DNA of 64,000 bases, taken from contig JBBQLG010000004.1 in NCBI GenBank assembly GCA_038327655.1, forward strand, positions 32,302-96,301. The letters run 5' to 3'. Shown here piece after piece: positions 38,444 to 42,921 of this stretch. How positions within the stretch are numbered: position 1 is the first letter of the stretch; every line of letters starts with the position of its first letter. The notes beneath the pieces are model-generated. The model ran no database searches and was not told where the DNA came from. It saw only the letters and a list, made by a program, of their open reading frames with translations. The translations under genes were made by a program, and so were the position numbers. The DNA is from Cytophagales bacterium. Lineage in GTDB: Bacteria > Bacteroidota > Bacteroidia > Cytophagales > Spirosomataceae.

Positions 38444-39985
38444 TTAATCCTCGCGGCCTTCTTTGCGGTTGGCATCGGCCATGCGCACGATTTTCGGGGT
38501 GAACGTGGCCAGCACCGACACCAGATCGCGCTGCGCATTAATAACGGTGTCGACGTTTTTGTACACCATCGGTGCTTCGTCCAGGTCGCCACCCACGAGT
38601 TGAATACCCGCTTCGGTCAGGGCTTTGTTCCACTGCGAACGCGTCAGGGTGTTGAACGCCTGTGTCCGCGACATCAACCGCCCGGCCCCGTGCGACGCCG
38701 AATTGATCGACTCCGCATTACCCCGCCCGCGCACTACAAAACCCGGCTGGGTCATCGAGCCGGGAATAATGCCCAGCACACCCAATCCGGCCGGGGTAGC
38801 CCCCTTCCGGTGAACAATCACGTCGCGGCCATCGGCGAGTTGCTCTTTCCAGGCGAAGTTATGGTGATTCTCGACCATCACCAGAGGCTTCTCGCGTAAG
38901 GCTCTGGCCATCTTTCGGTGAATTTCGTGGTGATTGGCCGATGCATAGTCCCCGGCCAGATTCATGGCAATCCAGTACGATTGGCCTTCTTCCGAATTCA
39001 GATCGAGCCACGCCAGATGAGCAGCCTGTTTCGGTAATTTGGTCTTCTGCATGGCCAGTTTTGAGTAGTAATTAGCTACAGATCCGCCAAACCCGCGTGA
39101 GCCGGAGTGCGACAGCAAGGCCAGATACGAACCCGGAGGCAAATTCAAGGCGTCGTGCTCCGCCGGGTCGTCCTGCGCGTGTACCTCAACAGTGCCCCAC
39201 TCCACAAAGTGGTTACCGGTGCCGGAACTGCCTAACTGACGATAAGCTTTGTCTTTCAGATCACGAATCACTTTGGTGGCCTGCCATTCGGGCAAGTCCA
39301 TTACGCTCTCGTCTATCTTCTCACGGGTTTCGCCCCCCATGCCAAACTTGGTTTGCTCCACTAATGCTTTCTTCAGCAGGTGCGGCTCGCGGGTTAAAAA
39401 AGCGGGCGGCAAATCGAATACGGACAGACACATTCGGCAGGCAATGTCGACGCCGACCGCAAACGGGATAACCGTGTTTGCCTCCGTTGCGAGTACCCCG
39501 CCAATGGGTAAACCGTAGCCCTGGTGGGCATCGGGCATGAGGGCACCCGCCACAGCTATCGGCAACGTGGCCGCCGTTTCCATTTGTTTCAGCGCACTTT
39601 CTTCAATCTGCTCGCGACCAAACACGGCGTAGGGTAATGGTCCGGTACGCAGGTCGACTGTTTGCGCGGCCTGTTTTTCGGTACTGCTCAGTACATACGG
39701 AGCTGGTTCGGGCGGCAGATACCCCACGCCCGCTTCGCTGAGGGGTACCGAAATGCCCTGTTTGTTTAACTCATAAATGGCCTGGGCCAGATTGGTCACT
39801 TTATTTTTGGCGTAAGCGTATTTTTTGGGGTTCTGAATCATCTGCGCCAGCAAACCCAGCACCCTCTCCTTAGGGTAGTTGGCCCGTTGCACCAGTCCAT
39901 TGGCTACCCGCAAAAAACGGCCGTGCAAGTAGTCGGGAATCGGCCCTAACGCTAAAATATCGTCAACTGAAATTGAGGTTTCCAT
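38444..39985 (-). CDS. rtcB: RtcB family RNA ligase (N-terminal ~90-aa extension)
   Basis: Metal- and GTP-binding motifs MPDAHQGYG, GVDIACRM, GTGNHF, NHHN and SASHGAGR in canonical order. 513 aa. Confidence 0.85.
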   Translation of the reverse strand: METSISVDDILALGPIPDYLHGRFLRVANGLVQRANYPKERVLGLLAQMIQNPKKYAYAKNKVTNLAQAIYELNKQGISVPLSEAGVGYLPPEPAPYVLSSTEKQAAQTVDLRTGPLPYAVFGREQIEESALKQMETAATLPIAVAGALMPDAHQGYGLPIGGVLATEANTVIPFAVGVDIACRMCLSVFDLPPAFLTREPHLLKKALVEQTKFGMGGETREKIDESVMDLPEWQATKVIRDLKDKAYRQLGSSGTGNHFVEWGTVEVHAQDDPAEHDALNLPPGSYLALLSHSGSRGFGGSVANYYSKLAMQKTKLPKQAAHLAWLDLNSEEGQSYWIAMNLAGDYASANHHEIHRKMARALREKPLVMVENHHNFAWKEQLADGRDVIVHRKGATPAGLGVLGIIPGSMTQPGFVVRGRGNAESINSASHGAGRLMSRTQAFNTLTRSQWNKALTEAGIQLVGGDLDEAPMVYKNVDTVINAQRDLVSVLATFTPKIVRMADANRKEGRED

Positions 39986-40101
39986 TGGATTATTTTTTTA
40001 TGTATCCGGCTGATTAAGCCAGTCAGCCAACGCTCAGGGATGCGTCGGCATTAGCCAACCGGCTTAATCAACACGACAAAAACTACTGTTCGGCGGCAGC
40101 A

Positions 40102-41247
40102 TCAACTACCCCGGACCCGCGCCCGAACGAAGAGTTGCTTCAACTGATCGACCATCGAGCCATCGTTGGATACGGAAATGGAGCCGATTTTGTCCGCAAT
40201 TTTTTCTACGTATTCCATCTCCTTCAATTTCCAGAGCATTTCGTTGTCTTCCATCAATTTGGCCGTGTTCAGCAGGCTGCGCGTCGACGCGGTTTCTTCC
40301 CGGCGCATAATGCTGTTGGCCTGCGCTTTCTTTTCAGCCATCAGCACCTGGTTCATGATGTCGCGCATGTCGCCGGGCAGTATAACATCGCGGACGCCAC
40401 CGGTACGAAGTTCGACACCCAATTGGGCCGCTTTTGCCGCCGTAGAAGCCATAACATACGCAGCCAGTTCACCTTTTTTATCCAGCAATTCGTCCAGCGT
40501 CAGCCCGCCAATGTATTCCCGCAACGCCAACTGCACGGCCACGTACAACTGCTTATCGTGGTCCTTGTTATCAACCAAAGCCTTAATAATGTCCTGCACC
40601 TGGTACTGCACGTAAAAGCTCAACCGGAGCGACGCTTTGTCTTTAGTCAGAATCTCCTGCCCAGCTATTTCAATCTGCTGCTGACGCATATCGGCCTTCA
40701 GGACGTGGATTGACGTCGTATTTTTCCACCAGTAGTACGTACCAGCCGTCAGTATCCGGTCGAATTTCCAGTCGATGAATAACACGCCCTGCTCATGAGC
40801 CTCCACCGTGTAGGTCCGTACAAAGGCACCCAGCGGTTGCGGCATCAGCGCGGCCAGGTTGATGCTGGCCGGAATGTCGAGTTGGCTCAGATCCGCTTTT
40901 ACGTAGTAGTACGGCTCAACTCCACTCCGACGAGCCGATTTCCAATACGCCCAGCGACCCTTAGTCAGCACCGCGTGAAAAAGCCCGTTCGTTTCGTCGA
41001 TGCGTTCGTATTGCAGCGCGATTTCACTATCCATCACCTCAACGACGTCGAGCGCAGCGGCCACTTCGGGGTAATCCAGCAGGAGAGCCAAATCGCAGGG
41101 TGGATTTTGGAACCGCTCGCCCTGGTTGTAGACGTAGACGGTTTCGCTGGCCCAGAGCCAGTGGTTGCCTTCGGTCAGTATTTTCCGGTAGCCGCCATGT
41201 TTAAAAACCAACCCGATTTGATGGGCCAGGATGCGTACAGTTTTCAT
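40102..41247 (-). CDS. SPFH/band-7 (slipin-like) domain protein without predicted TM anchor, N-terminal ~150-aa unknown domain
   Basis: SPFH core from residue ~190 (ILTKDKASLRLSFYVQYQVQDIIKAL...LALREYIGGLTLDELL...GVELRTGGVRDVILPGDMRDIMNQVLMAEKKAQA). No hydrophobic helix in the N-terminus. Confidence 0.7.
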   Translation of the reverse strand: MKTVRILAHQIGLVFKHGGYRKILTEGNHWLWASETVYVYNQGERFQNPPCDLALLLDYPEVAAALDVVEVMDSEIALQYERIDETNGLFHAVLTKGRWAYWKSARRSGVEPYYYVKADLSQLDIPASINLAALMPQPLGAFVRTYTVEAHEQGVLFIDWKFDRILTAGTYYWWKNTTSIHVLKADMRQQQIEIAGQEILTKDKASLRLSFYVQYQVQDIIKALVDNKDHDKQLYVAVQLALREYIGGLTLDELLDKKGELAAYVMASTAAKAAQLGVELRTGGVRDVILPGDMRDIMNQVLMAEKKAQANSIMRREETASTRSLLNTAKLMEDNEMLWKLKEMEYVEKIADKIGSISVSNDGSMVDQLKQLFVRARVRGS

Positions 41248-41612: not shown

Positions 41613-41690
41613 ACAGGTTGATAGCGGGATTCGAACCCGCATTCAGGTGACAGAAACAATCCATAACCAACAGTATATCCAAAGCCAGCG
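41613..41690 (-). ncRNA. tRNA-like element (T-arm plus D-loop-like segment, no anticodon arm); possible Y-RNA-like ncRNA, tRNA pseudogene or att-site remnant
   Basis: Minus-strand RNA reads ...GUUGGUUA...(23 nt)...GCGGG-UUCGAAU-CCCGC-UAUCAAC. There is a perfect T-stem-loop with consensus T-loop, an upstream D-loop-like GUUGGUUA, and a 3-prime acceptor-like strand that can pair with downstream GUUGAU. No complete cloverleaf; lies in a 600-bp ORF-free interval. Confidence 0.4.
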
Positions 41691-41850
41691 GCTGCGAACA
41701 CTATGGGGCTATCCGGAAACCCGCATCTGGTTTGGTCATCGACGTTTTTATCGCAACGGCGAACCGTCCTCACAAAGGTTGTTGGCTACTGCGCAGTGTT
41801 TTTGCGTAGTAGAAATTATTTTCTATTTTTCTTAAAAATCTGAGTTCCCG

Positions 41851-42921
41851 ATGCCTGCCAACCGAAATGCCTTGATTCGCTACAAAACACTGGACGCCTG
41901 CCTGCGGAACCGACAGCGTAAGTGGACCCTCGATGACCTGATCGAAAAGGTTTCGGAATCCCTTTATGAGTACGAAGGAATTGACAAGGGTGTCAGTCGG
42001 CGGACGGTACAGGCCGACCTGCAGTTAATGCGGAGCGATAAGCTGGGGTACTTGGCACCGATCACGGTTGTCGACAAAAAGTACTACACCTACGACGATC
42101 CGACGTACAGCATCACCAACATTCCGCTGTCGGAGGGTGATCTGTCGCGAATGAACGAAGCCGTAGAGGTGCTCAAGCAATTCCGGGGATTTTCGCACTT
42201 CACGGCTCTCAACGAAGTGGTCCAGAAATTGGAGGACCATGTGTACTCAACCGCGCAAAAGTCGGCGTCGGTCATTGATTTTGAGAAGAACGAGAATTTG
42301 AAAGGGCTTCACTTTCTGGACGATTTGTACCAGGCCGTTATTCAGAAGCGCGTGTTGCTGATTCAGTACCAGTCGTTCTCGGCCCGGCTTCCGCAAACGT
42401 TTGTCTTCCATGTCTGGTGGCTGAAAGAATTCAAAAACCGCTGGTTTGCGGTGGGAAAACGCGATGGAAAGGGTCATCTTTTTAATCTGGCACTGGACCG
42501 GATCATTGCCATTGATACCACTACGGACCAGGAATATGTCGGTAACGGGCACATGGACCCCGAGGTCTATTACCGGAATGTAATTGGTGTAACCGTCAGC
42601 GAAACTGTACGGTCGGCGCGGGTGAGGCTTCTTGTAACGGCCCGTCATGCGCCCTACGTGGAAACGAAGCCGCTGCATCAGTCGCAGCAGGTTGTGGAGC
42701 GGACGCCCGACGGCATTATCATCGAGATCCACGTGCAGCTGAACTTCGAGCTGGAGAAAGAAATATTGGGTTTCGGTGAAGGCTTATACGTACTCGAACC
42801 GGAAAAACTCCGCAAAAACATTCAGTATCGCCTGCGGGCGGGGCTGGCCCAGTACATGGCCCCGAAGCAGCCGGACAGCAAAATCACCCAACGTCATGAC
42901 TCACCTCAACGTGATTTGTAA
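41851..42921 (+). CDS. WYL domain-containing transcriptional regulator (N-terminal wHTH)
   Basis: N-terminus MPANRNALIRYKTLDACLRN is a WYL-regulator-type HTH. Central WYL-like region is RVLLIQYQSFSARLPQTFVFHVWWLKEFKNRWFAVGKRDGKGHLFNLALDRII. Confidence 0.65.
   Translation: MPANRNALIRYKTLDACLRNRQRKWTLDDLIEKVSESLYEYEGIDKGVSRRTVQADLQLMRSDKLGYLAPITVVDKKYYTYDDPTYSITNIPLSEGDLSRMNEAVEVLKQFRGFSHFTALNEVVQKLEDHVYSTAQKSASVIDFEKNENLKGLHFLDDLYQAVIQKRVLLIQYQSFSARLPQTFVFHVWWLKEFKNRWFAVGKRDGKGHLFNLALDRIIAIDTTTDQEYVGNGHMDPEVYYRNVIGVTVSETVRSARVRLLVTARHAPYVETKPLHQSQQVVERTPDGIIIEIHVQLNFELEKEILGFGEGLYVLEPEKLRKNIQYRLRAGLAQYMAPKQPDSKITQRHDSPQRDL

Follow-up and report, generated by a model that had tools for sequence, protein, structure and literature searches.

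A WYL regulator, a tRNA-mimicking RNA, a soluble SPFH protein and RtcB as a conserved cassette of Bacteroidota

Few substrates are established for bacterial RtcB, and the question raised by a 64 kb stretch of Cytophagales DNA (contig JBBQLG010000004.1, here called the window, whose positions serve for all coordinates below) is what an rtcB gene is doing beside a gene for an SPFH/Band-7 protein, a divergent gene for a WYL-domain regulator and an intergenic region of tRNA-like appearance. The computational analysis reported here indicates that the WYL regulator, a tRNA-mimicking structured RNA, a soluble SPFH protein that would act as a scaffold and RtcB constitute a genuine, coherent and conserved cassette. 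Its kind is already known, as the locus appears from its parts to be a Bacteroidota member of the Band-7/RtcB/tRNA-like-RNA system predicted in 2016, a system which was found in the searchable literature only as a prediction.

The rtcB and SPFH genes and their conservation

The minus-strand gene at 38444-39985 encodes an RtcB RNA ligase of 513 amino acids (aa), matching PF01139 with E=8e-85. Aligned to the RtcB of P. horikoshii, the protein retains GVDIAC, GTGNHF, HSGSRG, NHHN and SHGAGR, in which lie the conserved positions D..C, NH, H, H and HGAGR; in the archaeal enzyme these residues bind the metal or take part in guanylylation. The homologous part starts at approximately residue 129 of the query as against residue 41 of the archaeal protein, and an N-terminal extension of approximately 90 aa is therefore present, so that the extended RtcB with its catalytic motifs kept, as described in a first-pass annotation of this DNA, is borne out.

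The next gene upstream (40102-41247), which shares the strand of rtcB and is separated from it by 116 nt, encodes a 381-aa protein of the large ‘slipin’ subfamily, in which the SPFH domain (PF01145) occupies residues 147-318 and matches to stomatin and HflK span residues ~145-353. The highest Kyte-Doolittle mean over 19 residues is 1.37 and the protein therefore has no transmembrane helix, in keeping with its earlier description as a protein co-oriented with RtcB and devoid of a membrane anchor. An AlphaFold (AF2) monomer model (pLDDT 76.7) comprises a beta-rich N-terminal region of ~120 residues, the SPFH domain and then a helix of ~65 residues, and Foldseek comparison of this model returned stomatin, HflK/C, prohibitin and erlin, together with the major vault protein (E ~1e-10 over ~460 alignment columns, gaps included, with a TM-score of ~0.35 on the query).

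Conservation was assessed in a sample of 80 Bacteroidota loci encoding SPFH orthologues (54-78% identity) and in five separately fetched Spirosoma/Fibrella genomes. RtcB is encoded downstream of the SPFH gene in 56 of the 80 loci and in four of the five genomes, while full-length orthologues of the WYL protein (47-74% identity) are encoded divergently upstream of it in 22 of the 80, representing several families. The WYL gene is divergent from the SPFH gene in all five Spirosoma/Fibrella genomes, the flanking genes of which vary; the order WYL, gap, Band_7 and RtcB is kept in S. linguale, S. radiotolerans, Spirosoma sp. KUDC1026 and Fibrella sp. ES10-3-2-2, and S. agri possesses the WYL and SPFH genes without an adjacent RtcB. 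Across Spirosoma, Fibrella and Larkinella the WYL/RNA-SPFH-RtcB arrangement is conserved among unrelated flanking genes. The loci sampled show the four parts travelling together in Spirosomataceae and an RNA-SPFH pair that is nearly universal in Bacteroidota; as to the synteny of SPFH, rtcB and a WYL regulator, which the first-pass annotation had put forward as the check to be made, the divergent WYL gene accompanies SPFH in these 22 loci and five genomes, and all three genes are together in four of the five genomes.

A structured RNA upstream of the SPFH gene

The gap between the SPFH and WYL genes (41248-41850) had been described as an interval of ~600 bp, free of open reading frames and carrying a tRNA-like element. 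Its length of 603 bp is in agreement with this description, but mechanical open reading frames do exist within it, overlapping the RNA structure; one of 112 aa (41435-41773), together with a 44-aa call in S. radiotolerans, was rejected as a gene owing to its overlap with covarying RNA helices. The tRNA-like element survives as a structured RNA with a T-arm and not as a tRNA gene, that identity being ruled out by ARAGORN, which called no tRNA gene in the whole window, and by Rfam, which gave no match there at the gathering score and none to RF00005. Membership of the YrlA family (RF02553) was similarly ruled out for the window RNA, no match being obtained in the window even at E<=10. A permissive Rfam scan returned only the T-arm hairpin GCGGGTTCGAATCCCGC (41624-41640, minus strand) as a partial match to the T-arm of tmRNA/tRNA, and the predicted folding of the entire gap of 603 nt is considerably more favourable than that of shuffled sequence (z=-4.5).

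The identity of the element was established with a covariance model, R1, which represents a 5’ domain and the first T-arm; the 48 loci from which it was derived include neither the window nor the fetched loci most closely related to it (L001-L005). R1 matches the window at full length at 41621-41740 on the minus strand (65.8 bits, E=7e-16), its sole match in the 64 kb. It also matches 76 of the 80 related loci, once each and always upstream of the SPFH gene on the SPFH strand, and all five of the Spirosoma/Fibrella genomes; among the four misses, two loci lack upstream sequence and two have a tRNA-Tyr-like gene instead.

Followed along the minus strand, the RNA starts with an ACGG-UUCG-CCGU hairpin (41756-41767), seen in alignment A5 and in the sequence itself, which would form the 5’ end of the predicted transcript. 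The 5’ domain (41667-41735), delimited by the R1 match, consists of a helix P1 enclosing hairpins P2 and P3, P1 being formed by CCAA (41735-41732) with UUGG (41670-41667) and belonging to the R1 consensus structure. There follow a T-arm mimic, GCGGG-TTCGAAT-CCCGC (41624-41640), identified by the partial Rfam match and by an element GGTTCGA.TCC which is invariant in alignments A2, A3 and A5, and a loop-closed ‘acceptor’ hairpin with a D-loop remnant (41592-41622), supported by the pairing test in 53 relatives described below. The closed acceptor pairs ATCAAC (41622-41617) with GTTGAT (41609-41604), compensatory variants being seen in A5, and is succeeded by the D-loop-like remnant CCGTTGGTTGGA (41603-41592). 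An H-type pseudoknot (41563-41591), in which covariation was found among 50 family members, is built from a stem 1 of AAG (41590-41588) and CTT (41580-41578) whose loop, TGACC (41586-41582), pairs with GGTCA (41569-41565) past an A-rich linker. Between this core and the SPFH start runs a G+C-rich leader (41248-41562) with conserved blocks in A2 and A5, including a TTCCGC motif (41315-41320) which is conserved across the phylum and recurs in distant loci. The RNA of the window thus described is a single unit without a D-stem and without an anticodon arm, and its sequence marks it as a reduced member of a conserved structured RNA and not as a tRNA gene.

Two smaller observations concern the ends of this RNA. 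The 5’ hairpin is formed by a short unit, GGACGGTTCGCCGTTGCGA (41751-41769), which lies directly after a promoter-like box and is present as one copy in the window, two in S. radiotolerans (L084) and three in S. agri (L083). In distant loci a conserved motif, TTCCG-N8-10-RATG-N14-18-CTTTnTTTAAAA, is located 40-100 nt upstream of the SPFH start; the ATG that it contains was considered as the beginning of a conserved open reading frame and rejected, as frames and stops vary between loci.

In relatives the RNA is more elaborate. Nearly every locus contains one or two T-arm hairpins that ARAGORN misses, at about -440 and -375 from the SPFH start, and the order of elements is a small 5’ hairpin, the three-helix 5’ domain (P1-P3), tRNA-like units and an anticodon-arm look-alike, with a GAAG/CTTC hairpin and then an A-rich stretch at the 3’ end. 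Each tRNA-like unit, of which there are usually two in tandem, runs in the order T-arm, acceptor 3’ strand, small loop, acceptor 5’ strand and D-arm. In an alignment of 53 two-unit loci (A3), on which RNAalifold and the pairing tests were based, compensatory changes occur in 48 of the 54 predicted pairs, many of them in P2 and P3. The loop-closed acceptor hairpins of the two units have on average 5.9 and 5.7 of 7 positions paired against permutation nulls of 4.0 and 3.6, whereas the pairing expected of an ordinary tRNA, between the 5’ strand of unit 1 and the 3’ strand of unit 2, reaches 3.8 of 7 against a null of 3.6. Since the closed hairpins are supported and the ordinary pairing lies close to its null, the units are circularly permuted tRNA mimics; for the same reason the RF00005 matches of 32-35 bits that bridge the D-arm of unit 1 and the T-arm of unit 2 were not accepted as tRNAs of ordinary order. 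The pseudoknot helix was examined in 50 distinct members, in which the mean helix length of 5.02 exceeds a null of 3.82 +/- 0.12 and is reached by none of 1000 permutations, and many pair types are found at its positions across the family. The complete first unit is retained in S. linguale and Larkinella punicea, and the other Spirosomataceae carry the single reduced unit seen in the window.

It might be argued that what resembles a tRNA here is the relic of a decayed tRNA gene, for instance one from an array, and that the WYL protein is unrelated to it and controls, for example, the neighbouring amidase gene: real arrays of 5-20 tRNA genes do lie near many of the relatives’ loci, and the element of the window has lost tRNA features. 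We consider this exceedingly improbable, as the non-tRNA domains P1-P3 and the pseudoknot are conserved with covariation, the acceptor is loop-closed as in no tRNA gene, and R1 matches its 76 loci at one fixed position, while the amidase gene, convergent with the WYL gene in the window, is not conserved beside it and the operator described below tracks the RNA, SPFH and rtcB instead. Control of the amidase by the WYL protein, which the first-pass annotation had named as the finding that would speak against its proposal, is accordingly disfavoured by the lack of conservation of that gene.

A more serious alternative concerns the mode of action of the RNA. Rather than a trans-acting subunit of a ribonucleoprotein (RNP), it could be a cis-acting 5’ leader, a tRNA-mimic operator resembling the thrS leader; the translation or stability of the SPFH-rtcB message would then be controlled via this element by RtcB, by the SPFH protein or by some factor that binds tRNA. 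The near-fixed distance of ~350-500 nt between the T-arms and the SPFH start across the phylum would suit such a leader, as would the further conserved motif TTCCG... close to the start codon, the unusually good folding of the whole gap and the fact that no terminator-like site was found on the minus strand of the window in the 41248-41850 gap, that is, between the RNA and the SPFH gene. On the other hand, the related Ro-linked YrlA RNAs work in trans as RNP components, according to bioRxiv 10.1101/312249, and the RNA is tied more tightly to SPFH (76/80) than to rtcB (56/80), which is a better fit to a protein partner than to a switch for the ligase. We regard an exclusively cis-acting leader as unlikely, although the two roles are compatible with each other.

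The resemblance to YrlA is confined to the relatives, which match positions 23-86 of the 114 in the Rfam model with 29-46 bits (E down to 4e-7; gathering score 69), the matched part being the tRNA-like domain and the Ro-binding stem (positions 1-22 and 87-114) remaining unmatched; no Rfam 15 family is matched at the gathering score by the RNA upstream of SPFH. An anticodon-arm look-alike with a 5-bp stem and a 7-nt loop is present in the second unit of 47 of the 53 aligned RNAs (A3 columns 335-351), with U33 in 39 of these and a purine at position 37 in 46. Nineteen different ‘anticodon’ triplets occur among the 47, including GTT, GAT, TAG, GAA, GTG, ACG, GTA and GTC. Colicin E5 and colicin D-type nucleases cut anticodons of the GUN and ACG types, both of which are represented. 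Such variability could have arisen as the element evolved into a decoy or sensor, or through recurrent recombination with genuine tRNA genes. A bolder proposal can be made from these features, namely that the RNA upstream of this SPFH subfamily is a distinct, uncatalogued multi-domain family and forms with the vault-like soluble SPFH protein an RNP that would detect toxins cleaving tRNA, or act as their decoy, and pass substrates on to RtcB, with the WYL protein sensing broken RNA and the lineage of the window being a stripped-down version; we offer it tentatively, as a possibility on which we would not rely. What may be new here is the anatomy of the RNA (its 5’ domain, permuted mimics, variable anticodon-like loops and pseudoknot), its near-universal linkage to SPFH and the operator.

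Genuine tRNA-like genes also occur around the RNA in relatives. An 85-nt ‘tRNA-Tyr(GUA)’-like gene without an encoded CCA is conserved between the palindrome and the RNA in some loci and lies directly upstream of SPFH in L012 and L019, both of which are without the R1 RNA. Examples are found in L012 (5887-5971), L015 (5259-5344), L019 (5887-5971), L040 (5121-5205), L055 (5250-5335) and L066 (5037-5121), those of L012, L015, L040, L055 and L066 being callable by ARAGORN, and this gene may be the published ‘b7a-tRNA’. In many Chitinophagaceae-type relatives (within the range L007-L080) co-oriented arrays of 5-20 tRNA genes lie 1-5 kb upstream of the RNA-SPFH unit, as in L016 (1941-3632) and L024 (457-2020), or on both sides of the SPFH gene in L057; the order in L016 is tRNA array, RNaseH_like (PF04308), AAA ATPase, RNA, SPFH, DinB_2 and RtcB. 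The window itself is without a tRNA array.

The WYL regulator and its candidate operator

The divergent gene (41851-42921, plus strand) encodes a 356-aa transcription factor with a helix-turn-helix (HTH), WYL and WCX architecture. Its WYL and WCX domains (PF13280, PF25583) exceed the Pfam cut-offs (33.5 bits against 21.8 and 50.1 against 23.9, respectively), its N-terminal match to HTH_11 is weak and under the cut-off (E=0.005), and it matches the WYL model of PADLOC with E=2e-22, being the only protein of the locus that PADLOC recognised. The closest solved relative is found under 7p5x and 9fnd, ‘Transcriptional regulator-like protein’ (E=2.7e-4), and 7p5x is presumably mycobacterial PafBC bound to RNA polymerase.

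A candidate operator for this protein was identified by its recurrence beside WYL genes. In the window it is the 21-bp palindrome CTACGCA-AAAACAC-TGCGCAG (that is, CTACGCA-N7-TGCGCAG) at 41789-41809, extending to 41786-41812 and followed 42 nt further on by the WYL ATG. Its general form, T[GA][CT]GCA-N7-TGC[GA][CT]A, is found 40-96 nt upstream of the WYL start in the WYL loci examined. Loci with a more distant WYL gene have a second copy immediately before the RNA, six loci have a third between the SPFH gene and rtcB, and a copy also precedes the RNA in loci that lack a WYL gene within 6 kb. The pattern is matched 69 times in 946 kb, where ~14 matches would be expected from its degeneracy by our own estimate, and its A-rich spacer faces the same way with respect to the gene that follows, also in copies far from any WYL gene. 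Two other matches in the window were set aside: TACGCAGATGAAATGCGTA at 52515-52533 fits the palindrome pattern without the A-rich spacer, approximately one such match being expected by chance per 64 kb, and an IMES-2 match over the operator/promoter region (41732-41833), scoring 22 bits against a gathering score of 54.7, was taken as chance.

Between the palindrome and the RNA lies a promoter-like box, AACCTTTG (41773-41780, minus strand), in which ACCTTTG is invariant in alignments A2 and A5. This box or a near variant is found 10-14 nt past the palindrome, directed to the RNA and SPFH, and the same spacing is seen in distant WYL loci. The -7 promoter box of Bacteroidetes is TAnnTTTG, which AACCTTTG resembles, and transcription is predicted to start near 41766. 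The most satisfactory reading of the WYL protein is that it regulates the RNA-SPFH-rtcB unit, and the regulator position that had been attributed to it fits both its divergent placement in the 22 loci and five genomes and the occurrence of the palindrome before WYL, RNA and rtcB alike.

As to the direction of this control, the sequence is compatible with either repression or activation. If the WYL protein were a ligand-bound activator, it might replace a missing -33 contact at the RNA-SPFH promoter by a ‘sigma adaptation’ such as that of PafBC. The closest solved relative, 7p5x, being PafBC with RNA polymerase, would agree with such a role, and so would a sense promoter with a -7-like box but no TTTG at -33 and an A-rich spacer oriented to the downstream gene also where WYL is not nearby. 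The similarity to PafBC is, however, weak (E=2.7e-4), a palindrome centred near -33 occupies the classic position for occlusion, and the WYL factors of defence systems are described as repressors in the introduction of PMC11888443. Activation is in our judgement doubtful, and a repressor acting at the RNA-SPFH-rtcB promoter is the reading carried forward here.

Known systems, the proposed mechanism and neighbouring genes

The first-pass annotation presented the locus as a differently wired RNA-damage response module, a claim to novelty which is overstated, as the combination of Band-7 protein, RtcB and tRNA-like RNA had been described by Burroughs and Aravind in 2016. As quoted in bioRxiv 10.1101/312249, these authors found RtcB beside a Band-7 protein and a tRNA-like non-coding RNA, ‘b7a-tRNA’, and proposed the protein and the RNA as a scaffold or cofactor for ligation; that preprint adds that YrlA occasionally adjoins a Band-7 protein and that the tRNA-like RNA was without experimental validation as of 2018. 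The 2016 paper is also cited, in a later paper of the same group, for WYL sensor transcription factors, and some CARF/WYL factors are stated to regulate RNA repair pathways in PMC9503650. The locus of the window shares with that system the active-site positions of RtcB, the co-oriented SPFH gene 116 nt upstream and the R1 RNA beside SPFH. Likeness to ‘b7a-tRNA’ is by its description in citing papers, the window RNA containing no callable tRNA, and the window differs in having no YrlA-scoring unit but a reduced module of T-arm and closed acceptor, with the 5’ domain and the pseudoknot.

The rsr-yrlBA-rtcBA operon of Salmonella (Ro60, YrlA, RtcB and RtcA, under the CARF regulator RtcR and sigma-54) similarly links RtcB to a tRNA-mimicking RNA and has a divergent ligand-sensing regulator. 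The order of YrlA (T-arm, loop-closed acceptor, D-arm) is that of the window RNA’s relatives, the window lacking the D-stem. The locus of the window differs in that an SPFH protein takes the place of the TROVE partner and in the regulator, RtcR being CARF-AAA+-HTH and the protein of the window HTH-WYL-WCX. No RtcA or RtcR gene was found among the genes flanking the module; the statement that no Rsr is present at the locus holds for the neighbours checked, none of which is a TROVE/Rsr gene, the rest of the window not having been screened for Rsr. YrlA itself is set apart by the scores of the relatives (at most 46 bits against the gathering score of 69), their unmatched Ro-binding stem and the lack of any match in the window.

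Full-length slipin orthologues (33-40% identity) also occur in Citrobacter, E. coli, Burkholderia and one Firmicute. In Citrobacter freundii (L088 2960-6913) rtcR is divergent upstream of the slipin gene, a nucleotidyltransferase gene follows the slipin, and the 450-nt leader contains a sigma-54-like promoter, a T-arm, a loop-closed acceptor hairpin and a GGTTG stretch; E. coli STEC639 (L087 4469-6922) has a corresponding leader-slipin-nucleotidyltransferase locus. The enterobacterial slipins share 33-38% identity with the protein of the window over 94% of its length, and the gap of 450-530 nt that precedes them, with its T-arm, closed acceptor TTTCAT-ccccga-ATGAAA and GGTTG, has the reduced layout of the window. 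They are distinguished by an RtcR regulator, a sigma-54-like TGGCAC-N5-TGGCA promoter and a nucleotidyltransferase in place of RtcB, and R1 matches only the T-arm of the enterobacterial leader (12.7 bits). The position held by rtcR in Citrobacter, beside a T-arm and closed-acceptor leader and slipin, supports the earlier suggestion of a regulator swap, WYL and CARF regulators being apparently interchangeable there. The leader-slipin region (at least 80% of the leader region) is found in 1628 of 5426 complete E. coli genomes, approximately 30%, and no RNA feature is annotated under the leader match in the RefSeq E. coli records listed; this related locus would make an easy genetic system.

In Anabaena the ribbon-helix-helix (RHH) repressor TrcR co-represses rtcB, the slipin operon alr0739-alr0740, an AAA ATPase, an amidase-containing operon and a long tRNA array, and the regulon is induced by translational stress or inhibition of translation. 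The islands of relatives that join 5-20 tRNA genes, an AAA ATPase, SPFH and rtcB are comparable to it, and their tRNA arrays resemble the Anabaena L-array/rtcB/slipin regulon; by contrast, TrcR acts on direct repeats, its target genes are scattered and no tRNA-mimic RNA has been reported among them. An SPFH gene is also embedded in the rtc locus of P. aeruginosa. With WYL here, RtcR (CARF) in Citrobacter and TrcR (RHH) in Anabaena, different sensors were apparently recruited to the same RNA-damage response, and comparison of the three could help to identify the signal. Among HTH-WYL-WCX regulators, PafBC, CapW, BrxR and DriD likewise have genes beside their putative targets and a palindrome over the promoter region, but those targets are DNA-damage, CBASS and BREX genes as against the putative RNA, SPFH and RtcB targets here, and similarity to the solved members is marginal (E=2.7e-4). 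The vault particle (major vault protein, vault RNA and TEP1) is comparable in its beta-rich N-terminal parts, SPFH-like ‘shoulder’, long helix and small structured RNA; a length of 381 aa against ~800-900 aa and a TM-score of ~0.35, obtained with a monomer model alone, make this a resemblance and not family membership.

Taken together, these comparisons lead us to consider it reasonably probable that the locus is an RNA-damage or translational-stress operon of the Band-7-RtcB type under the control of the WYL-domain regulator. Past the conserved co-occurrence of the parts, every mechanistic step that follows is one that we infer. A WYL dimer on the palindrome would keep both promoters low, the centre of the palindrome being ~33 bp upstream of the predicted RNA-SPFH-rtcB start and overlapping a TTTG that may be the -33 box of the WYL promoter. 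The WYL domain may bind tRNA fragments, rRNA fragments or some other product of RNA damage, a role modelled on that of the CARF domain in RtcR, a regulator activated by tRNA fragments according to the abstract of PMC10159003, and the operator would then be released or remodelled. A long transcript would supply the tRNA-mimic RNA, as a processed small RNA or as a leader. The SPFH protein would bind this RNA and, by means of its long helix, assemble into an oligomeric ring or cage in the manner of stomatin, HflK/C and the vault protein. Broken substrates of tRNA-like form, or enzymes that bind tRNA, may be held by the resulting SPFH-RNA RNP or presented by it to RtcB, and the ligase would reseal breaks with 2’,3’-cyclic-phosphate and 5’-OH ends.

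Several points weigh against this interpretation. The vault-like Foldseek matches have low TM-scores (~0.35); the window RNA, having neither D-stem nor anticodon arm and no YrlA match at E<=10, may have lost part of its ancestral function; and the sense promoter is without a clear TTTG at -33, which is compatible also with an activator. RtcB is absent within 6 kb in 24 of the 80 loci and beside the S. agri SPFH gene, and must therefore be considered a frequent and not an obligate partner of the RNA-SPFH pair. Lastly, transcription, RNA processing, RNA-protein binding and the nature of the WYL ligand are predictions in this account. The locus makes the system testable: its cassette is compact and has four parts, the candidate operator measures 21 bp and is accompanied by a promoter-like box, and the helices and pseudoknot of the RNA are defined. 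Strains that are in culture and fully sequenced, such as Spirosoma linguale DSM 74 and S. radiotolerans, also possess this cassette.

The neighbouring genes examined encode ClpB, toxin-antitoxin proteins, RtcB, SPFH, WYL, the amidase and a Zn-peptidase. The toxin genes had been regarded as functional partners producing the breaks that RtcB repairs, and genes for a ParE_toxin and a RelB-like protein do lie 550-1100 bp past the rtcB stop, on the opposite strand. The ParE_toxin call was confirmed by Pfam (46.8 bits) and that of its RelB-like partner is marginal, falling just under the cut-off (26.1 bits against 27), whereas the ‘VapB/truncated VapC’ pair has no significant toxin or antitoxin family match in Pfam and none whatever in NCBIfam, a PIN-like VVIDTNVLLAAL motif alone being visible by eye. 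ParE-family toxins are not necessarily RNases. No homologues of RelB/ParE or of the amidase were seen in the 80 loci, although the filter requiring alignments of at least 60 residues could hide weak matches of short proteins, and esterases or hypothetical proteins are encoded past rtcB in the five Spirosoma/Fibrella genomes. A RelE/ParE toxin gene does adjoin rtcR in the Citrobacter locus, which might be held in favour of a partnership; with VapBC devoid of profile support and no conservation seen in the 80 loci, within the limit of that filter, or in the five genomes, the toxin-antitoxin and amidase genes were rejected as parts of the module, and a functional link of the toxins to rtcB appears very unlikely.

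No relative of the SPFH protein was present in a phage collection. Past the toxin-antitoxin genes, and not found beside the module in related loci, is a gene for a ClpB-type chaperone of 882 aa (34693-37341), named by eye from its sequence. No minus-strand terminator-like site was found between the SPFH gene and rtcB in the window; the 116-nt spacer between them contains, on the minus strand at 40011-40070, a perfect inverted repeat with a 10-bp stem, TGATTAAGCC ... GGCTTAATCA, which was read from the sequence, encloses 40 nt and has no T-run after it. In several distant loci a copy of the WYL palindrome occupies this spacer in place of the inverted repeat.

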